This document shows, piece by piece, positions 351-16,509 of a stretch of 64,000 nt of DNA (its first letter is position 1; each line of letters opens with the position of its first letter). Source of the stretch: Ignavibacteriota bacterium. Lineage in GTDB: Bacteria > Bacteroidota > Ignavibacteria > UBA10030. The stretch is taken from assembly GCA_963701295.1 (NCBI GenBank), contig OY969585.1, positions 3,552,001-3,616,000 on the forward strand. The letters run 5' to 3'. The position numbers and the translations under genes are program-made. The notes below the pieces were generated by a model. It worked only from the letters and a program-made list of their open reading frames with translations. It ran no database searches and was not told the origin of the DNA.

Positions 351-507
351 GCCTAACGGATGGCAACTAAGCTGTCACGCTGAATATTTTCAATATACAC
401 AAAACGGAACAAGTTCATGTTGATAAGTTTATTATTAAACACAAAACCTCTACTCGCCATGCTTAACGTACCACGCTCATTTGGTCAGCTTGAGCCGATG
501 GTTAGGT
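351..507 (-). repeat. attC site (157 bp)
   Basis: GCCTAAC...TAAGCTG...CAGCTTGAG...GTTAGGT inverted R/L boxes, same pattern as the other six sites. Confidence 0.9.
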
Positions 508-4090: not shown

Positions 4091-4424
4091 ATAATTTAAA
4101 TTTAAATTTAAATTTAACGGAGAATTTTTCTTTTTAGTATCAATAAAGCTTTAAATTTCATCGAAGTTCGGCTTGCACTTAACTATTTCAAAACGCAACC
4201 TAACGGATGGCAACTAAGCTGCGGCACTAAAAACCCTCAAGTTGCCGAAAACGAACCAAGTTTATTATAAAATATTTCAATCAATAATCCCTAAGCGCCA
4301 TGCGTAACATACAAACGCTCATACCGTCAGCTTGAGTTGCTGGATATTACCAAAAAGGAATCTCCCGATTATGTACATTGATAATTCTCTAGGTCACCAA
4401 CATCCACAATCTAAGGAGATTCCC

Positions 4425-5426
4425 ATGTATTACTCAGGTATCGATTTGCATTCTGATAATTGTTTTATCACCACTGTTGATGACACTGGTGCTGTCATCA
4501 AGCGACAACGTGTCGAGAATAACAATGAACGTGTTCTTGATTACTTCCACTCTCTGCCCGGTCCTCATCACGCAGTCGTTGAGTCTACCACAGGATGGTA
4601 CTGGCTCAACGATCTTCTCAGCGATCACGGCATCGAGCTTGTCCTTGCTCACGCCAAATATCTCAAAGCCATCAGTTATGCTAAAGTTAAAACAGATAAA
4701 GTCGATTCGCAAACTCTTGCTCTTCTCTTACGACAGGGACTCATTCCACGGGCTCACAAAATCAGCCGAGAACTACGCGGCCTGCGCGATACCATGCGTA
4801 TTCGTCTACGGCTCGTTCAGCAACGAACTGCCAGTCTTCTGCGTCTCTACAGTATTCAGACCAAATTTAACGGCTCTGTTCCGGATCCGTATCGTTTTCA
4901 ACTTGCTGTCTTGCAACATACCAGAGACACTTTTACTGCTCAGATCCTCTCGCTGGAAAAATCTCTCCATCCTGTGCTGATTCCCAACGACGATATTCAA
5001 CGGCTCTTGCACATTCCAGGTATCGGCAAGCTCACCGCATTCACGGTGTATCTTGAAATCGACGGCATTGAACGATTCGACTCCGATAAAAAGTTTGTCT
5101 CTTACTGCCGACTCGTCCCTGCTGCCGATAACTCCAATCGCTCTGTGCACCATCGCTCCAGCAAAGACGGCAATAAGTATCTCAAAATCGCCTTCTCCGA
5201 TGCCGCTGTTCATGCTATTCAGTACTATCCGGAATACAAACGCTTATTCCAGAAATTAGCTCGTCGCTCCAATGAGGCGACTGCGCGAACCGTCGTTGCC
5301 AAAGAACTTGCGAAGATTGTTTACTATGTCTTAAAAAACAAAACAATATATAAAGGTCTCAAAGGTCAGCCGATCAGCCGGCATAAATCTCAGCAGTGGC
5401 CGCGCCTCTCAAGCCCGCTTTCCTAA
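4425..5426 (+). CDS. IS110-family transposase/recombinase
   Basis: GIDLH, VVEST, KTDKVD (DEDD RuvC-like); IPGIG HhH; LVP..DNS..SKDGNKYL; RBS AAGGAG before ATG 4425. Confidence 0.95.
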   Translation: MYYSGIDLHSDNCFITTVDDTGAVIKRQRVENNNERVLDYFHSLPGPHHAVVESTTGWYWLNDLLSDHGIELVLAHAKYLKAISYAKVKTDKVDSQTLALLLRQGLIPRAHKISRELRGLRDTMRIRLRLVQQRTASLLRLYSIQTKFNGSVPDPYRFQLAVLQHTRDTFTAQILSLEKSLHPVLIPNDDIQRLLHIPGIGKLTAFTVYLEIDGIERFDSDKKFVSYCRLVPAADNSNRSVHHRSSKDGNKYLKIAFSDAAVHAIQYYPEYKRLFQKLARRSNEATARTVVAKELAKIVYYVLKNKTIYKGLKGQPISRHKSQQWPRLSSPLS

Positions 5427-5720
5427 CTGATCCCGACTGCGTCGGGATCGTTCGCTGGATTGGGAAGAGAGTGCGCTGTGCCGTGGTAATATCTGGAACA
5501 TCTCGCTCGACGAGATACGCTTTCACCATCGTTTCTTCAATGAGTGAATGTAAATCCGTAAACTGGTTTGGACGGCATTGCTCTGGTAATCGCCTGTCTA
5601 TTCGATAGAGAACGCGGCATCGGCACGGATTCGGTCGTCCTTAATGTTAAAGAACTCTGCATTCCGATTGCGCGGAACGCATCGGGAGTATATTATTTAC
5701 TTGACTCTTTCCTTTTTAAA
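5402..5720 (+). ncRNA. Putative bridge/seek RNA of the IS element (copy 1)
   Basis: Two predicted stem-internal-loop modules with segments matching the attC target (CCTAAC, GCTGG) and the donor junction (TGGTAATATC, TAAACTGG); ends are approximate. Confidence 0.75.
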
Positions 5721-5740
5721 CTGGTTATGTTGCAATTGTT

Positions 5741-7819
5741 TCATTTGAGCAAAACAAGTTTCTTCGTTTCAATAAATAAACCCACTTGTAAACGATAAAA
5801 GTAAATTCCGCTCGAAATAGTAGCCGCATTCCATTGACGTGCATGATTTCCTGTCGACATTTCTTCCGAAACCAGTGTTGCTACTTCTCTTCCTAAAATA
5901 TCAAACACCTTCAACGAGACAAAAGATCTATATGGAAGACTAAACGAAATAGTGGTCGACGGATTAAACGGATTAGGATAGTTTTGTTTAAGAGTGAAAT
6001 GCGTTGGTAAGTCGGTCGAATGTTTTACCACTGAAGTGATCACCTCCGACAACTGACGTCTCCAGACGCCGTCCCCAGTCCCTGCAAAAAGATTCGAATC
6101 GGATAAAGCAAGAGCTTGGACAAAATCGTTTGTTAATCCGGTATTGACTTGAGTCCAACTTGTACCATTGTTGGTAGAAAGAAAGACACCGTCATCCAAA
6201 GTTCCAGCAAAGAGAGTTGTACCGGATACAGCAAAAGCATTGATATAATTAGCGTAATTTCCTGTCAATCCTGAATTGACCGCAGTCCAGCTCGCGCCGT
6301 TGTTGGTAGAAAGAAATACACCACCGCCAGAAGTCCCTGCAAAAAGATTCTGGCCGGAAACTGCAAGAGCTAGAACGGTATCATTCGTCAATCCAGTGTT
6401 GACTTGAGTCCAATTTGTACCATTGTTAGTAGAAAGAAAAACGCCATAATAAGTCCCGGCAAAGAGATTCTGGCTGGAAACTGCAAGAGCTAGAACGGTA
6501 TCATTCGTCAATCCAGTGTTGACTTGAGTCCAATTTGTGCCATTGTTAGTAGAAAGAAAAACGCCATAATAAGTCCCGGCAAAGAGATTTGTTCCGGAAA
6601 GGGCAACAGTAGAGACATGAGTGTTCGTCGGTAACCCTGAATTAACAGCATTCCAGCTTGTACCGCTGTTGCTGGAACGAAAGACGCCATCCCTAGTCGC
6701 TGCAAAAAGATTCGAATCGGATAAAGTAAGAGCTTGAACAGTATCGTTCATCAATCCGTTATTGACTACAGTCCAGTTCGTGCCGTTGTTAGTCGAAAGA
6801 AAAACACCACCGCCTTGAGTCCCTGCAAATATTTTTTTATTGGAGATCGCGAGTGTTAAGACTTGAATATCTGTCAAGCTGGTATTAACATCAGTCCAAC
6901 TAATACCGCTATTGGTCGAAAGAAAGATGCCGGCGTCCCGAGTTCCTGCAAAGAGATTTGTACTGGAGACTACAAGAGCATTGACCCAATTGGACGTTAA
7001 GCCGCTATTAACCGCAGTCCAAGTCGTACCATTGGAAGTAGAAAGAAAGACACCTCCGTTCGGGTACGCAGCAAAGAGATTTGTGCCTGAGACTGCAAGA
7101 GCATTGACACCAGCATACTTTAAACCGGTGATGTCCCAGCCTGCGCCGTTATTGGTGGAAAGAAAAACGCCTCCGTTAGCTCCTGCAAAAAGATTTGTGT
7201 CGTAAGCGACAAAAGCATAGACATTAGTGTACGATAAACCGGTATTAACCCAACTTGTACCGTTGTTAGTGGAACGAAAGATACCACCAGAAGTTCCTGC
7301 AAAGAGATTCGTGTCAAAAGCGGCAAGTGTCCATACACAGGTATTCGTCACGCCGGTATTAACCCAACTTGTACCGTTATCACTGGAACGAAAGACGCCG
7401 CTCCAAGTCCCTGCAAAAAGATTCCCGCTAAATACTGTAAGAGCTGTAATAAAATTGTCTGTCAATCCGGAATTGACCGCAGTCCAGCTCATGCCGTTGT
7501 TAATAGAGAGAAAGACACCCCCGCCAGAAGTCCCTGCAAAGATATTCTTTCCAGAAACTGCAAGAGAAGAGACTTCATTATTTGTCAAGCCATTGCTCGC
7601 CGCAATCCAGCTTGTACCGTTATTGGTAGAGAGAATGACACCACCGTCCCAAGTTCCTACGAAGAGATTCGTGTCTGACACGGCAAAGCAAGTTACGTCG
7701 GAGCTACCGACTCCTTTGGTTTGGATCCATTGAGCACGCAATTGATTTGTAGTTGTGAAGAAAACCAATAATACAAAGAGAAATCTGCTAGAACGGACAA
7801 TTCGGAAAATATTTTTCAT
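5741..7819 (-). CDS. Secreted beta-propeller (BNR-like repeat) protein with T9SS/FlgD-type C-terminal domain, cassette-borne
   Basis: ~14 repeats of LFAGT.GGVFLSTNNG.SW; C-terminal QNYPNPFNP...KKLVLLK; signal peptide from ATG 7819. Confidence 0.85.
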   Translation of the reverse strand: MKNIFRIVRSSRFLFVLLVFFTTTNQLRAQWIQTKGVGSSDVTCFAVSDTNLFVGTWDGGVILSTNNGTSWIAASNGLTNNEVSSLAVSGKNIFAGTSGGGVFLSINNGMSWTAVNSGLTDNFITALTVFSGNLFAGTWSGVFRSSDNGTSWVNTGVTNTCVWTLAAFDTNLFAGTSGGIFRSTNNGTSWVNTGLSYTNVYAFVAYDTNLFAGANGGVFLSTNNGAGWDITGLKYAGVNALAVSGTNLFAAYPNGGVFLSTSNGTTWTAVNSGLTSNWVNALVVSSTNLFAGTRDAGIFLSTNSGISWTDVNTSLTDIQVLTLAISNKKIFAGTQGGGVFLSTNNGTNWTVVNNGLMNDTVQALTLSDSNLFAATRDGVFRSSNSGTSWNAVNSGLPTNTHVSTVALSGTNLFAGTYYGVFLSTNNGTNWTQVNTGLTNDTVLALAVSSQNLFAGTYYGVFLSTNNGTNWTQVNTGLTNDTVLALAVSGQNLFAGTSGGGVFLSTNNGASWTAVNSGLTGNYANYINAFAVSGTTLFAGTLDDGVFLSTNNGTSWTQVNTGLTNDFVQALALSDSNLFAGTGDGVWRRQLSEVITSVVKHSTDLPTHFTLKQNYPNPFNPSTTISFSLPYRSFVSLKVFDILGREVATLVSEEMSTGNHARQWNAATISSGIYFYRLQVGLFIETKKLVLLK
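6355..6589. repeat. Near-perfect 120-bp in-frame tandem duplication
   Basis: Lines at 6361/6481 and 6421/6541 are nearly identical. Confidence 0.9.
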
Positions 7820-7857
7820 ATGTTCATCTTTTGTGAAATGGTAAAATATCAATTGCA

Positions 7858-8011
7858 ACATAACGGACCGGCGCTAAGCTGCGGCGCTGATAATTTTCAA
7901 TATCTACTAAACGAAATGAGTTCATGCTGGTTCTTTCAAATTACACCAAGCCTTTGCGCGCCATGAATTTTGCACTACGCTCATTCCGTCAGCTTGAGCG
8001 CCTGGTTAGGG
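7858..8011 (-). repeat. attC site (154 bp)
   Basis: ACATAAC..GGCGCTAAGCTGCGG ... CCGTCAGCTTGAGCGCCTGGTTAGGG. Confidence 0.92.
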
Positions 8012-8023
8012 CGCAGCTACATA

Positions 8024-8052
8024 TTGACAATGTATACTCATTGTAGTATATT
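8024..8052 (+). promoter_or_regulatory. sigma70-type promoter of the TA operon with overlapping palindromic operator
   Basis: TTGACA (8024-8029)-17 bp-TATATT (8047-8052); IR ACAATG-N6-CATTGT at 8027-8044. Confidence 0.8.
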
Positions 8053-8057
8053 TACTT

Positions 8058-8339
8058 ATGAACATCATCTGGGATGAAGAGAAAAACAACAAACTAAAGA
8101 AAGAACGCCACATTTCGTTTGAAGAAATCGAATCATTAATATTGGCAAAGAAATATATAGAAATAGTGAAACATCCAAAACGTATTGGCCAGAGAGTTTT
8201 TATAATTCCAATTAAAGGATATGTACACGCTGTACCGTTCTTGTTAGATGATGACAACAATATTGTTTTGAAAACTGCGTTTCCAAGTCGGAAATTTCAT
8301 AAAAAATATGGACAAAAGAACAATGAAAACAAAACTTGA
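8058..8339 (+). CDS. BrnT-like type II toxin
   Basis: WDEEKN.KLK.ERHISFEEI; VPF...IVLKTAFPSRK; upstream of an RHH partner. Confidence 0.85.
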   Translation: MNIIWDEEKNNKLKKERHISFEEIESLILAKKYIEIVKHPKRIGQRVFIIPIKGYVHAVPFLLDDDNNIVLKTAFPSRKFHKKYGQKNNENKT

Positions 8340-8622
8340 TAAATACGAAAAAGAAATAGAACGATCCGCTAATTCCTACCATTCAGTATCGAAAAATGAG
8401 CGGAACAAAATAGAAGGCGTCTTAGATCGCATAAGAAAAACTAGAAACGTAAATATTCGCCTTTCTGAATCCGTCTTGGAACAACTGAAACGACGTTCCC
8501 GTGAAGAAGGAATCCCTTATCAGACACTTATTTCTAGTGTTTTGCATAAATTTGTTACCGATCGTCTTATAGACGAAGCCGCTATAAGAAAGTCTGTACG
8601 ACTGCTTCATTCTGCCCAATAG
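8323..8622 (+). CDS. CopG/BrnA-like RHH antitoxin
   Basis: VNIRLS...EGIPYQTLISSVLH; overlaps the toxin. Confidence 0.85.
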   Translation: MKTKLDKYEKEIERSANSYHSVSKNERNKIEGVLDRIRKTRNVNIRLSESVLEQLKRRSREEGIPYQTLISSVLHKFVTDRLIDEAAIRKSVRLLHSAQ

Positions 8623-8662
8623 CCCCACAATAACTTCAGTTAATATTGGATTATGCTGCGCT

Positions 8663-8861
8663 GCCTAACGGATGGCAACTAAGCTGACGCACTGATAACT
8701 TTCAAAATGTACTGAACGAAACTGGATTTCATGCTGAATACAAAATTAATTAATACTAAAGTTATGAAGTACAATAAACGTATTAATAAAAACGATAACC
8801 CACCACCAGCCATGCGCAACGTACCCGGCTGGCAACCGTCAGCTTGAGCGCCTGGTTAGGC
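8663..8861 (-). repeat. attC site (199 bp)
   Basis: GCCTAAC...TAAGCTGACG ... CCGTCAGCTTGAGCGCCTGGTTAGGC. Confidence 0.9.
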
Positions 8862-8892
8862 AGCATCCATCGATCAACCGCCAGCGAGGTGT

Positions 8893-9888
8893 TCATGGCT
8901 GCGCGAGAAACCGTCGAATGGCATCAGCCACTTTTATGGAGTCCGACAAAAATACATAATGGTTATTTACTTGATAGTTTGTCTGCTTAAGTTCCAATAT
9001 TTCACCGTTACGCATCTCACGTCGAAAGCGCGCACGCTCGGTTGATAAATAATCGATAGCCCACTGCCCATAAATCGTCGTCGTTCGGCGTTCAGTGGAA
9101 TCCATTTGCGCCCACCTAGAAGGCAAAACAATGAATTCGGGTGACTCACACATCCGATAAATGGCGAGTGCTGGTGCTGAAACCTGCGAGTATGGCGGAT
9201 GCTCCGATCCCCGAAGGAAAACCACGGTGAACGAATCAGGTGTAACATCGCGCTCAATCTTGCCACTTGCATCGAAAACGTACCAAGTTCGTATTTCTGC
9301 CTCAGGCAGCGGATACCCTTTGGCTGCCCAAAAAGCCCGAACAGCTCCCGGTGATGCGGAATCAGCTGCTGTCATGGGTTTGGATTTTACAAATTTAGGT
9401 TGGTTGAGCTGAGCCGTGTGATCGTATGCGGCATCCAGATAAACGAGTCGGCGAACGCGGCTCGGGAAGCGGGCGGCAAGACCGGTAAGTTCGCCTCCTG
9501 CAATTGAATGACCAATGAAGGAAGCACGCGCCACACCTAATGAATCGAGCAGTGACACGAGATCTTTAATCCGTGTCTCAATATCGTATCCGTATGCTGT
9601 CTGGCTCGAGGCGCCAAACCCACGGCGTGTCACTGCCATCACATGGAAGTGGTCTCTGAACTGTGGCGCGAAATCGTCGTAGACATGGGCGGAGAGTCCA
9701 AGACCGGAGAGGAAAATCAATGTATCTCCTCGTCCTCCCCAATCAAGCACTTCCAAGCGTACGTTCGGTGCGACCGTAACAAACTGTATACGATGCGGCG
9801 ATGGATCCGTCCAAGTCTGTGGTGTCGCAGACTGAACAAGAGCGATCAGCAGAACGAAGACTAAGCCACTAATTTTATGTGTATTCAT
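8893..9888 (-). CDS. Secreted alpha/beta hydrolase, cassette-borne
   Basis: Signal peptide; LEVLDWGG; RRGFG.S; GHSIAG nucleophile elbow. Confidence 0.88.
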   Translation of the reverse strand: MNTHKISGLVFVLLIALVQSATPQTWTDPSPHRIQFVTVAPNVRLEVLDWGGRGDTLIFLSGLGLSAHVYDDFAPQFRDHFHVMAVTRRGFGASSQTAYGYDIETRIKDLVSLLDSLGVARASFIGHSIAGGELTGLAARFPSRVRRLVYLDAAYDHTAQLNQPKFVKSKPMTAADSASPGAVRAFWAAKGYPLPEAEIRTWYVFDASGKIERDVTPDSFTVVFLRGSEHPPYSQVSAPALAIYRMCESPEFIVLPSRWAQMDSTERRTTTIYGQWAIDYLSTERARFRREMRNGEILELKQTNYQVNNHYVFLSDSIKVADAIRRFLAQP

Positions 9889-9938
9889 TGTATCCTCCGT
9901 GAAATTGGTTTGGGATCAAATCTGTTCATTGCGTTGCA

Positions 9939-10125
9939 GCCTAACGGAACGGCGCTAAGCTGCGGCGCTGATAAGTTTCATAATGCAACCAACGAAACAG
10001 GTTCATGATACTATCTTTCAATTAAACACAAAACCTATGCTCGCCATGCTTAACGTACCCATTTACCCGCCATGCTTTATCTTTGGGCGGGCGCTCATTC
10101 CGTCAGCTTGAGCGCCTGGTTAGGG
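9939..10125 (-). repeat. attC site (187 bp, with an extra internal hairpin)
   Basis: GCCTAAC..GGCGCTAAGCTGCGG ... CCGTCAGCTTGAGCGCCTGGTTAGGG. Confidence 0.9.
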
Positions 10126-10133
10126 CGCATTTA

Positions 10134-10592
10134 TTATTTCTCGACTGTTTCGTTCGGTTTAATCCCGGGAGATATTGTCCTAAAATTAAAATCTTTAAAT
10201 CTCAGAACCTTTTGTCCGAGGTCTTTCCTAATCGCTAAGATAATTGATCGAATTATATTATCCTGTTGTTCAATGGAATAATCGTCCCCTCGGTGAGTAC
10301 CAATGTAATCAAGAAGATCATGCACTTTCTCCAAGACCTCACGGCTTGCAATAAGATTCATCAAATTGACTGAGTTCGCAAGTTTCCGATGCGCTTCATA
10401 GGATTTATAAATACTTCCCATTTCGGAAAAACCAGACAGGAAATCCATATATCGGTCAAGTTTGAATTTAAGTTCCTGCAATTTTATTTCTCGTCTACGA
10501 TTGAGAAATTGACCGATGACAGCCGCAATTAATGTGGCAAGAGCACCGATGATTGCTACTAAAAGCACATGATTATTTGATGTTGATTCCAT
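10134..10592 (-). CDS. Hypothetical cassette protein with N-terminal TM helix
   Basis: 152-aa ORF filling the space between two attC sites. Confidence 0.75.
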   Translation of the reverse strand: MESTSNNHVLLVAIIGALATLIAAVIGQFLNRRREIKLQELKFKLDRYMDFLSGFSEMGSIYKSYEAHRKLANSVNLMNLIASREVLEKVHDLLDYIGTHRGDDYSIEQQDNIIRSIILAIRKDLGQKVLRFKDFNFRTISPGIKPNETVEK

Positions 10593-10829
10593 ATGAAATG
10601 CGCCCTAACGGATGGCAACTAAGCTGCGGCACTAAAAACCCTCAAGTTGCCGAAAACGAACCAAGTTTATTATAAAATATTTCAATCAATAATCCCTAAG
10701 CGCCATGCGTAACATACAAACGCTCATTCCGTCAGCTTGAGTTGCTGGATATTACCAAAAAGGAATCTCCCGATTATGTACATTGATAATTCTCTAGGTC
10801 ACCAACATCCACAATCTAAGGAGATTCCC

Positions 10830-11831
10830 ATGTATTACTCAGGTATCGATTTGCATTCTGATAATTGTTTTATCACCACTGTTGATGACACTGGTGCTGT
10901 CATCAAGCGACAACGTGTCGAGAATAACAATGAACGTGTTCTTGATTACTTCCACTCTCTGCCCGGTCCTCATCACGCAGTCGTTGAGTCTACCACAGGA
11001 TGGTACTGGCTCAACGATCTTCTCAGCGATCACGGCATCGAGCTTGTCCTTGCTCACGCCAAATATCTCAAAGCCATCAGTTATGCTAAAGTTAAAACAG
11101 ATAAAGTCGATTCGCAAACTCTTGCTCTTCTCTTACGACAGGGACTCATTCCACGGGCTCACAAAATCAGCCGAGAACTACGCGGCCTGCGCGATACCAT
11201 GCGTATTCGTCTACGGCTCGTTCAGCAACGAACTGCCAGTCTTCTGCGTCTCTACAGTATTCAGACCAAATTTAACGGCTCTGTTCCGGATCCGTATCGT
11301 TTTCAACTTGCTGTCTTGCAACATACCAGAGACACTTTTACTGCTCAGATCCTCTCGCTGGAAAAATCTCTCCATCCTGTGCTGATTCCCAACGACGATA
11401 TTCAACGGCTCTTGCACATTCCAGGTATCGGCAAGCTCACCGCATTCACGGTGTATCTTGAAATCGACGGCATTGAACGATTCGACTCCGATAAAAAGTT
11501 TGTCTCTTACTGCCGACTCGTCCCTGCTGCCGATAACTCCAATCGCTCTGTGCACCATCGCTCCAGCAAAGACGGCAATAAGTATCTCAAAATCGCCTTC
11601 TCCGATGCCGCTGTTCATGCTATTCAGTACTATCCGGAATACAAACGCTTATTCCAGAAATTAGCTCGTCGCTCCAATGAGGCGACTGCGCGAACCGTCG
11701 TTGCCAAAGAACTTGCGAAGATTGTTTACTATGTCTTAAAAAACAAAACAATATATAAAGGTCTCAAAGGTCAGCCGATCAGCCGGCATAAATCTCAGCA
11801 GTGGCCGCGCCTCTCAAGCCCGCTTTCCTAA
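10830..11831 (+). CDS. IS110-family transposase/recombinase
   Basis: Protein identical to 4425-5426. Confidence 0.95.
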   Translation: MYYSGIDLHSDNCFITTVDDTGAVIKRQRVENNNERVLDYFHSLPGPHHAVVESTTGWYWLNDLLSDHGIELVLAHAKYLKAISYAKVKTDKVDSQTLALLLRQGLIPRAHKISRELRGLRDTMRIRLRLVQQRTASLLRLYSIQTKFNGSVPDPYRFQLAVLQHTRDTFTAQILSLEKSLHPVLIPNDDIQRLLHIPGIGKLTAFTVYLEIDGIERFDSDKKFVSYCRLVPAADNSNRSVHHRSSKDGNKYLKIAFSDAAVHAIQYYPEYKRLFQKLARRSNEATARTVVAKELAKIVYYVLKNKTIYKGLKGQPISRHKSQQWPRLSSPLS

Positions 11832-12125
11832 CTGATCCCGACTGCGTCGGGATCGTTCGCTGGATTGGGAAGAGAGTGCGCTGTGCCGTGGTAATATCTG
11901 GAACATCTCGCTCGACGAGATACGCTTTCACCATCGTTTCTTCAATGAGTGAATGTAAATCCGTAAACTGGTTTGGACGGCATTGCTCTGGTAATCGCCT
12001 GTCTATTCGATAGAGAACGCGGCATCGGCACGGATTCGGTCGTCCTTAATGTTAAAGAACTCTGCATTCCGATTGCGCGGAACGCATCGGGAGTATATTA
12101 TTTACTTGACTCTTTCCTTTTTAAA
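11807..12125 (+). ncRNA. Putative bridge/seek RNA (copy 2)
   Basis: Same sequence as 5402-5720. Confidence 0.75.
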
Positions 12126-12161
12126 CTGGTTAGGTGCTGTGCCCAGCATTTGCCCGTTATT

Positions 12162-12581
12162 TTATACTCTGAAATCATAGGATTTAAAGTTTTCATACAT
12201 CCTGCAAACTTTAGTCGTAAATTTTAATACACAGTAATCTGGATCGGTTATTCCCTTTGAATAATATATTGTATCACCATCTCGCCAAATTCTATCTTTT
12301 GTAGGTTGATCTTGCAATACTTCCATAAAACCTTTTAACATAATTCCGCGAAAAGAACTACTATCATAGAAATAAATAGAAGCTTTGGAATTCTTCATGT
12401 ATTGTTTCACACGCACCGACGATGTATTGGTAGTAAAATAAAATATTTTTAAACCGTCATTTTCTCTTGGTTTTAACATGGCTTTCAAATTCGGAAACCC
12501 ATCTTCATCAACAGATGAAATAATTGTATTACTACTTTTTCCAACAATAGATAAACCTTTTTTTATTAAGTCTTCATTCAA
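12162..12581 (-). CDS. Pyridoxamine 5'-phosphate oxidase-like FMN-binding protein (general stress protein 26 type)
   Basis: SSVDEDGFP..KAM; YFTTNTSS; YYSKGITDPDYCVLKF. Confidence 0.85.
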   Translation of the reverse strand: MNEDLIKKGLSIVGKSSNTIISSVDEDGFPNLKAMLKPRENDGLKIFYFTTNTSSVRVKQYMKNSKASIYFYDSSSFRGIMLKGFMEVLQDQPTKDRIWRDGDTIYYSKGITDPDYCVLKFTTKVCRMYENFKSYDFRV

Positions 12582-12616: not shown

Positions 12617-12814
12617 ACCTAACGGATCGGCGCTAAGCTGCGGCAACGATAACACGCAAGTTGCTGAAAACGAAACAAGTTCATGCTGACAACCAAATTA
12701 AATATTTCCCAACCAACGAGGTACTGAAAAGTTAATTATAAAAACCTAAACCCGCCACAAGCCATGCTCTAAAGTACTCGGGCTCATTCCGTCAGCTTGA
12801 GCGCCTGGTTAGGC
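12617..12814 (-). repeat. attC site (198 bp)
   Basis: ACCTAAC..GGCGCTAAGCTGCGG ... CCGTCAGCTTGAGCGCCTGGTTAGGC. Confidence 0.92.
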
Positions 12815-14435: not shown

Positions 14436-14510
14436 GCCTAACTCTGATTAGACTGCATACCGCAGCCTAATACGCTTTTTTGAGTGTTAGACTGCATATT
14501 GCAGCCTAAC
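14436..14510 (-). other. attI recombination site with two palindromic accessory repeats
   Basis: Core GTTAGGC (minus, 14436-14442) matches the end of the first cassette; no attC arm follows; 25-bp repeats at 14447-14471 and 14486-14510. Confidence 0.75.
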
Positions 14511-14705: not shown

Positions 14706-15665
14706 ATGGCCGAACAAAAGTTGTTAGATCGCGTCCGCGATTGCATACGAACCAAACACCTCAGCATTCGCACCGAAGAAGTCTATCTCAATTGGATCAA
14801 ACGTTACATCCTCTTTCATCAAAAGAAGCATCCTCGTGAATTGCGGGAACCGCACATTGAACAATTTCTCACTTCCCTGGCAGTGGATAGCCAGGTCTCT
14901 GCTTCCACACAAAATCAAGCACTGAATGCCATCTTGTTTCTCTATCGCGAAGTGCTTCATATAAAGATCGGGGACATGAATGAAATTATCAGGGCAAAGA
15001 GAACTCAGCGTATCCCTGTCGTCTTTACGAAAAAGGAGATTGAATCTATCCTGCAATATCTCCACGGATCACAAAGACTGATCTGTGCCCTGCTCTACGG
15101 CAGCGGCATGCGCCTGCTCGAATGTCATCGACTGCGCATAAAAGACATCGACTTTCTCAGAAAACAAATCATCGTACGCGAAGGAAAAGGAGAAAAAGAC
15201 CGCATAACGATTCTTCCTGCATCGCTTCTTACGCACCTCGAACATCAAATCGCTAAAGTGAAACTCCTGCATCAAGAAGATAAAACCGATGGCTATGGCG
15301 ATGTATATTTACCGGATGCCATCCGCATAAAATTTCCGCGGGCTGCAAAAGAATTACTATGGCAATATGTATTCCCCTCTTCAAGGCGTTCGATGGATCC
15401 GCTAACAGGAGCCGTCCAACGGCACCATATTGATGAAAGTGTTGTGCAACGCGCTTTTAAAACAGCGTTACAAAAATCCAAAGTGAGAAAAGCAGGAACA
15501 ATACACTCCTTGCGTCACTCATTCGCAACACATCTCTTAGAAGATGGGCACGACATCCGCACCGTCCAGGAATTATTAGGGCACAAAGATGTTAGGACTA
15601 CGATGATCTACACTCACGTCCTGAACAAAAAAGGTCTCACCGTCCGAAGCCCGCTGGATACATAA
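14706..15665 (+). CDS. intI: Integron integrase
   Basis: Tyrosine recombinase R-H-R-H-Y motifs ([25 protein letters not shown]) plus the IntI-specific insertion (VYLPDA..KFPRA..WQYVFPS); divergent from the cassette array. Confidence 0.97.
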
Positions 15666-15703: not shown

Positions 15704-15834
15704 GCGAAATCGATAGAAGTGAACATTGCCAAGGCGAGTTAAATTTATGTACTTCTACTTTTCCTTTCTTAAATAATTAACCCATCGCTTCCGAAATCTT
15801 AGCTCCTTCTTGAGAAAACACGTTTCGATTTCGC
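15704..15834. repeat. 131-bp element with 10-bp terminal IR, copy A
   Basis: GCGAAATCGA...TCGATTTCGC; homologous to 16221-16351. Confidence 0.75.
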
Positions 15835-16220
15835 GAGCGTTTTGCCGCTTTAAAAATAAATGTGCGGCATCCCGTACAACGGGACTTTCTGCCATTATCC
15901 TCCCCTTACTTAAGGGGAGGTGTCGAGATGAACTGTTAGTTCATCGAGACAGAGGGGTCACTTTGTGCAGCCAAAGAAAGCGGTGATCTGAACACTCAAA
16001 CTTTTCTTTGATGATTCGGTCTTTGCCCGTCTCGTCATCGCATAACGATGACGGACGCGATCGCGATCCCGTTCTGTGGGATCGGACAGATCGCTTCATC
16101 ATTCATCACACTTCGTATGATTCATTCCTCGCAATGACATCTCATTTTTCGATGTTTTGCTCAGCCTACGAAATCGTTTAAAGTAATTTATCTGGAATTT
16201 TTAGTCTTCTCCTCAAGCAC

Positions 16221-16351
16221 GCGAAATCGACAGAAGTGAACCAAGACAAGGTGAGGTAATTCTTATTCAATCTCCAATCGGAATCTCAAACGAGATTCTT
16301 ATTAAATCCGTAATGGTAATTCCTCCTTGAGATTACATTTTTCGATTTCGC
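16221..16351. repeat. 131-bp element with 10-bp terminal IR, copy B
   Basis: GCGAAATCGACAGAAGTGAAC...TTTCGATTTCGC. Confidence 0.75.
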
Positions 16352-16509
16352 ATGCGTTTCTTTCAGTCGCTTTCTTTGCGCAATCAAAGAAAGCGGCAAA
16401 ATAAATATTACACGGGTAAAAACCTCACTATCCACATATTTCGCGAGAATGATAGTGTGTATATTTTTCTTTTCCCCCTTTTACTCCCCTCTTCCTTTTC
16501 TCTCTTCAA

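Follow-up and report, generated by a model that had tools for sequence, protein, structure and literature searches.

Background

IS621 encodes a recombinase with both DEDD and catalytic serine motifs, and its insertion is directed by a bridge RNA with two loops, carrying four guides for the target and donor sequences (PMC11208160; PMC13626964; PDB 8wt6). Recombination occurs at a core of only 2 nt (PMC13626964). A second described group, the IS1111-attC elements ISKpn4, ISPst6, ISPa21 and ISPa25, inserts in a single orientation at the L''/R'' end of integron attC sites, and has a guide RNA 3' of the transposase gene in which the top-strand guide precedes the bottom-strand guide (PMC11187229). 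By Hall's definition, the wider IS1111 group has 11-13 bp subterminal inverted repeats with 7 bp and 3 bp extensions and a long downstream non-coding region.

The pairing of R' with R'' makes the box at which IntI recombines, and the sequence of the unpaired spacer is not conserved among the attCs described in the same source (PMC5027507). That such insertions may immobilise cassettes has already been suggested in print, in an account describing the experimental evidence on their consequences for integron function as limited (PMC11616780).

Both the bridge-RNA mechanism and the targeting of attC by IS1111 elements are thus published; what is new here is a separate lineage and a different insertion base. 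Searches of the open literature, with subscription journals and ISfinder outside their scope, found no published description of this attC-targeting lineage, no paper since 2024 joining a bridge recombinase with attC and no literature on insertion sequences in the attC of Ignavibacteria integrons.

Results

A chromosomal integron with two identical insertions

The window, the whole 64,000-nucleotide stretch analysed here, begins with 15.7 kb of chromosomal integron: an integrase gene, a probable attI recognised by eye, minus-strand cassettes and an array of seven attC sites, the features of a sedentary chromosomal integron (Table 1). Its integrase is the only full-length integron integrase in the genome, whose attC sites number approximately 114, spread over about a dozen arrays. 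Most of these attCs are 140-190 nt in length, exceeding the 57-141 bp given in PMC5027507, and carry on the R' arm a spacer of 8-9 nt.

Two of the seven attCs are interrupted by identical IS110-family elements, oriented opposite to the cassette genes. The toxin-antitoxin-like cassette lying between them would make loss of the 6.4 kb between these direct repeats costly.

Table 1. Coordinates of the integron, the insertions and the predicted guides in the window
Feature	Position	Strand	Remarks
Free attC	351..507	+	CCGATGG type
attC 1, part left of insertion	4198..4343	+	attC bottom strand; from sequence, box naming after PMC5027507
attC 1 boxes	R' 4198-4204; L' 4213-4219; L'' 4330-4337; spacer 4338-4342; core 4342-4343		spacer TGCTG; core GG
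IS copy 1	4344..5724	+	1,381 bp, counting the GG core once
Transposase/recombinase, copy 1	4425..5426	+	DEDD, 333 aa; PF01548 and PF02371; NF033542 above cut-off
Predicted target-binding loop of bridge RNA	5402..5476	+	
Right-target guide (predicted)	5422-5427		CCTAAC; overlaps transposase stop codon
Left-target guide (predicted)	5453-5458		(C)GCTGG
Predicted donor-binding loop	5477..5575	+	
Right-donor guide (predicted)	5485-5493		
Left-donor guide (predicted)	5559-5566		
-35-like hexamer	5701..5706	+	would face -10-like hexamer only once ends are joined
Displaced R'' box of attC 1	5724..5730	+	GTTATGT
Cassette gene, attC split by copy 1	5741..7819	-	BNR-repeat protein with T9SS sorting domain
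Free attC	7858..8011	+	CGCCTGG type
BrnT-like/BrnA-like toxin-antitoxin cassette	8058..8622	+	between both IS copies; BrnT score below Pfam cut-off
Free attC	8663..8861	+	CGCCTGG type
Free attC	9939..10125	+	CGCCTGG type
attC 2, part left of insertion	10603..10748	+	99% identical to attC 1 counterpart
IS copy 2	10749..12129	+	identical to copy 1
Transposase of copy 2	10830..11831	+	
Guides in copy 2 (predicted)	11827-11832, 11858-11863, 11890-11898, 11964-11971		
Displaced R'' box of attC 2	12129..12135	+	GTTAGGT
Cassette gene, attC split by copy 2	12162..12581	-	pyridoxamine-phosphate-oxidase-like protein
Free attC	12617..12814	+	CGCCTGG type
Probable attI	14436..14510	-	core site and two direct repeats; read by eye, inferred
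Integron integrase	14706..15665	+	TIGR02249, 453 bits (cut-off 265)

Assignment to the IS110 family is based on the DEDD RuvC-like and Transposase_20 domains and their catalytic residues, which a motif check found intact (D7, E53, D91, D94 and S237). The subterminal inverted repeats are 9 bp long (4352-4360 and 5709-5717 in copy 1), with 8 and 7 nt outside them, and the non-coding stretch 3' of the transposase gene extends to 298 nt, against 81 nt on the 5' side. The nearest transposase relatives, at no more than 91% identity, come from records labelled Ignavibacteriota or Bacteroidota, which makes a host of that type probable; in 119 of the 120 nearest homologues the catalytic serine motif is SN rather than SG.

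A 4-base CTGG target duplication was considered and rejected, as relatives share only GG at both junctions. In these relatives, the bases at position -2 of the left and right junctions are G/G in 30 cases, T/G in 12, T/T in ten, A/G in two and G/T in none, the base being carried from the target to the right junction; at position -3 the donor base is kept in 28/28. This pattern fits a 2 nt core of the IS621 type, consisting here of GG, with no target duplication. The spacing of the -35- and -10-like hexamers at joined ends fits promoter geometry and, by analogy with ISEc11, a circle of joined ends is predicted to carry a junction promoter.

Biased occupancy of attC variants

An earlier sequence-only reading of the locus held that the element inserts solely into attCs matching its guide, always at the same base, and may reversibly lock the cassette concerned. 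The sequence bears out its description of the sites: both insertions lie at TTGCTGG^TTA (the caret marks the insertion point), between L'' and R'', and the five free attCs in the window, four CGCCTGG and one CCGATGG, lack GCTGG. The occupation of these two sites out of seven has approximately 1 chance in 21, a weak figure in that the two filled attC bodies are 99% alike and may be non-independent.

The genome contains nine identical copies, with the left flanks TTGCTGG (five), CCGCTGG (three) and TGCCTGG (one). All nine are in attC, at the same insertion base, as had been claimed. Mapping them was a check that the sequence-only reading itself proposed; while none lies outside attC, one occupies a GCCTGG-type attC, which it had named as a contrary case. 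The claim that guide-matching sites alone are attacked therefore fails, with the discriminating base mismatched in one of the nine copies here and in 3/15 copies of close relatives.

A pattern-based census, which may miss divergent sites, identified 103 free attCs in the genome, 30 of them of the GCTGG type and all empty. The ratio of filled to free sites is 8 to 30 for GCTGG and 1 to 73 for other types (Fisher P = 7e-4; P = 0.005 when two GCTGG copies are removed as possible duplicates), and the preference is a strong bias, not exclusivity. When the full ten-base target GCTGG^TTAGG is considered, 7/18 perfect attCs are filled compared with 2/94 others (P = 3e-5), and the commonest attC type in this genome, CGCCTGG, is filled in 0/46 cases. 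Free perfect ten-base matches number 13 genome-wide, 11 in attC; as only two fall elsewhere, sequence alone can explain the specificity for attC.

A predicted bridge RNA whose guides covary with their targets

The tail of the element has guides in the order right-target, left-target, right-donor and left-donor. GCTGG by itself arises in 33% of tail shuffles; all four guides jointly arise in 0/20,000. Structure prediction places both target guides within a stem, in its internal loop, and the outer stem of the target loop has compensatory changes at 6/12 pairs across 31 sequences. A scan of 4150-5800 against Rfam gave no match at E <= 1. The 5' stem and first guide of this predicted RNA (5397-5426) sit within the transposase gene, and it may be the RNA rather than the protein that maintains the QWPR..SP tail conserved at the C-terminus.

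Relatives were examined at 95 loci, of which 78 were parsed, giving 34 element clusters, and 17 were not. Within 67 parsed relative loci, the right flank starts with GTTA in 62/64 and an L''-like box is present in the left flank in 49/59. Guide-fit tests scored 29-32 clusters each, six of the 34 going unscored, for instance where the left flank was missing. Guides covary with target and donor sequences: each of the four fits the DNA of its own element best, and 0/5,000 shuffled pairings reach the observed score, a figure which is not a true P value since the elements are related and kinship inflates the score, so that within-clade cases weigh more. Among close relatives, G, C or A stands at the key guide position and agrees with the target in 12/15 copies; in a more distant Ignavibacteriaceae/Melioribacteraceae group, the agreement is loose. 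In one further genome, G301, the guide of a sister element reads CCTGG, and all four copies occupy CCTGG sites, of which one is degenerate on the L'' side; the free attCs there comprise 12 GCTGG, seven CCTGG and two ACTGG (P = 0.026), mirroring the occupancy pattern of the host genome studied here.

Biased occupancy and covariation together support the guide-directed preference put forward in the sequence-only reading, and covariation and the anatomy observed indicate that the element works like a bridge/seekRNA-guided member of the IS110 family. The left guide would pair with the attC spacer and the right guide with the constrained R'' box, so the right guide would be the source of attC specificity and the left guide, in reading a variable spacer, that of the bias among attC variants.

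Descent and comparison with described elements

The element resembles the IS1111-attC group in the end of attC used, in orientation and in the 3' position and order of its guides, and differs in several other respects. Comparison was made with 67 ISKpn4/ISPst6-type metagenome loci, identified by eye from the protein start given in the supplement of PMC11187229; no record named ISKpn4 was present among the 120 plasmid entries listed of 3,076. The right end of these elements lies 6, 5 or 4 nt from the GTT of R'' at 39, 10 and 4 of 55 loci, respectively (53/55 in total). They thus insert at the inner edge of L'', approximately 6 nt from the spacer/R'' junction used here, where the core of the present element takes in the G of R''. 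The inverted-repeat gap at joined ends is 15 nt in this element and 10 nt in IS1111-attC, the transposase belongs to another clade, with a DLH-type start, and the hosts are Ignavibacteriota/Bacteroidota. With regard to the Hall definition, the long downstream non-coding region is present, and the repeat length and clade features are not.

Transposase identity is 21-28% to ISKpn4-type proteins, over partial alignments, and 29-32% to ISGsu4-like and ISHvo10 proteins, the nearest named transposases. A tree of 37 rows was sparsely sampled, with long branches and ISPa25-type proteins absent; frameshifted or empty rows L073, L074, L166 and L169 were omitted and L061 was trimmed to 345 aa. The element's family forms a supported clade, sister to the ISGsu4-like proteins (97/92), and falls outside the clade of IS5075, ISEc66, ISKpn2-like and ISKpn4-type proteins, and hence outside a tight IS1111 clade. 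A topology test rejects uniting it with IS1111-attC in one clade (p-AU 2.5e-6). The separate origin raised in the sequence-only reading is consequently supported by identity, tree, topology test and insertion base; judged from these, the element lies outside the IS1111-attC group, and convergence on attC by a separate lineage is well supported, though not proven.

The element differs from IS621, as described in the sources cited above, in that its predicted RNA lies at the right end, overlapping the stop codon, the guide order is reversed, N replaces G after the catalytic serine in nearly all close homologues, and the target is attC. ISGsu4-like elements have a similar loop-flanking motif downstream of the gene, detected by eye, and they and ISHvo10 are distant in sequence, with no trace of an attC around the genes retrieved. 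More distant family members were also observed in attC-like sites: L073, from a Gemmatimonadota record, and L165, L169 and L171, of another family in the host's phylum, in which the donor guide varies in step with the left end of the element.

The fate of occupied sites

Insertion parts R'' from L'', as the sequence-only reading stated, and in the folded strand the R box is lost: R' is unpaired in the DNA fold of the occupied attC, whereas a natural free TTGCTGG site closes its R box. Minimum-energy folding is a blunt instrument for this purpose, two of the five free attCs in the window giving no canonical hairpin and a third only partly closing the R box. Given that IntI recombines at the box formed by R'/R'' pairing, loss of activity is likely, and the filled attC is regarded as likely inactivated.

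Elsewhere in the genome, two relatives 81% identical to the element look dead, the catalytic serine being replaced by proline and the right guide mutated; they have approximately 75 bp of left flank in common, and the right end of one of them is different. At five genome positions (1810030, 2382010, 2384960, 3157330 and 3333440), remnants of the right end of related elements lie beside R''-like boxes, at least two being fused to truncated attCs. Where the outcome of invasion is visible, it is decay. Tetu and Holmes in 2008 reportedly wrote of a 'footprint' and drew an infection-extinction picture.

One cassette occurs with its filled attC in identical form in two arrays, at genome coordinates 236020 and 2475728, with ends at IntI crossovers; it carries an HNH-like motif, recognised by eye. 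Three sets of free cassettes are duplicated too. The filled attCs at 4198-4343 and 10603-10748 have 99% identical bodies and different cassette genes, whereas all seven free attCs with a 97%-identical partner also have the gene end in common with that partner. The contrast is suggestive of gene conversion that began at the IS copies and spread.

Discussion

It is quite probable that the element is an IS110-family selfish parasite of the array, with a predicted bridge RNA that would steer the recombinase to GCTGG^TTAGG, likely inactivating the attC for good. This explanation is built on the position and orientation of the insertions, the four guide matches and their covariation in relatives, the 2 nt core and a descent separate from that of IS1111-attC. 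The mismatched insertions, and the loose agreement of guide and target in the more distant group, count against it. A circular intermediate bearing a junction promoter would undergo RNA-guided recombination at the GG core of the spacer/R'' junction; the right guide would confine insertion to attC, and the left guide would discriminate between spacers while tolerating one mismatch at a low rate. As R' could no longer pair with R'', recombination by IntI would be lost and the affected cassette fused to its downstream neighbour, although the pair could still leave jointly with the IS inside.

Two alternatives concern how the element came to attC. Were it simply one of the IS1111-attC elements already described, moved to another phylum, the shared end of attC, orientation, 3' non-coding region and guide order would follow, but the low identity over partial alignments, the rejection of a single clade, the different insertion base (the 4-6 nt distance to R'' at 53/55 known-type loci) and the different ends make this extremely improbable. 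Targeting by the folded attC hairpin or by IntI, in place of a guide sequence, would fit the finding that GCTGGTTA(G/T) sites are filled in 0/43 cases outside attC and in 8/41 cases of attC type (P = 0.002). Only two full ten-base matches exist outside attC, however, such that the pattern is accounted for by sequence alone, selection could also have removed insertions elsewhere, and the guides covary with their targets; this mode of targeting is accordingly considered quite unlikely.

The others concern what happens afterwards. The sequence-only reading suggested a reversible cassette lock. On such a view the element would be retained, or put to use by the host, so that selected cassettes are frozen until precise excision releases them. 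Excision at a 2 nt core would restore the attC exactly, IS621 does yield precise empty sites at a low level (PMC13626964), and since target and donor are alike at the two bases left of the core, the handshake bases would favour neither direction. Against this, ISEc11 gives no rejoined target, and the original copy of CazIS110-1 stays in place, according to a preprint. No empty site or circle junction was found among the joints listed from contigs of four DNA runs, a weak observation in that contigs show presence and not absence. The element also faces against the cassette promoter, so that read-through would not be expected to express it; two related copies have lost the catalytic serine and have a mutated right guide, five remnants stand in ruined attCs, and occupancy tracks sequence match, leaving no pattern for which cassette function would have to be invoked. 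A lock is thus unsupported and very improbable. A filled attC that is partly active, its IS riding with cassettes excised and re-integrated by IntI, is rather less remote but still unlikely: it would account for the identical cassette, IS and attC in two arrays with ends at IntI crossovers, but R' is unpaired in the fold, the site is a perfect guide match of which 7/18 are filled, making two separate insertions plausible, gene conversion is plausible too, and cassettes without the element have been duplicated as well.

On the preferred explanation of a parasite guided by RNA, an arms race between guide and site is a possible, if doubtful, extension, with spacer variants as escape alleles and sister elements rewriting one or two guide bases. 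The left guide would read the only stretch of the attC core open to change by the host without cost; the unfilled CGCCTGG type would represent an escape allele, and the variation of the key guide base would be the answer to such alleles. If true, bridge-RNA reprogramming driven by host escape would here have left a natural record, in a lineage that arrived independently at attC.

No new mechanism is revealed by these data. They indicate that IS110-family elements have reached integron attC more than once, at different bases and beyond the Proteobacteria. The family constitutes a natural set of variant guides whose targets are known, along with mismatch tolerance and a 2 nt core that can be read, of use for establishing the rules of bridge RNAs in an uncharacterised clade of recombinases in which the predicted RNA overlaps its own gene, and offers a clean system for asking what insertions do to integron function.

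Downstream of the integrase, the window also contains two related palindromic repeats (15704-15842 and 16221-16359), 517 bp apart, which are possibly copies of a small non-autonomous repeat.
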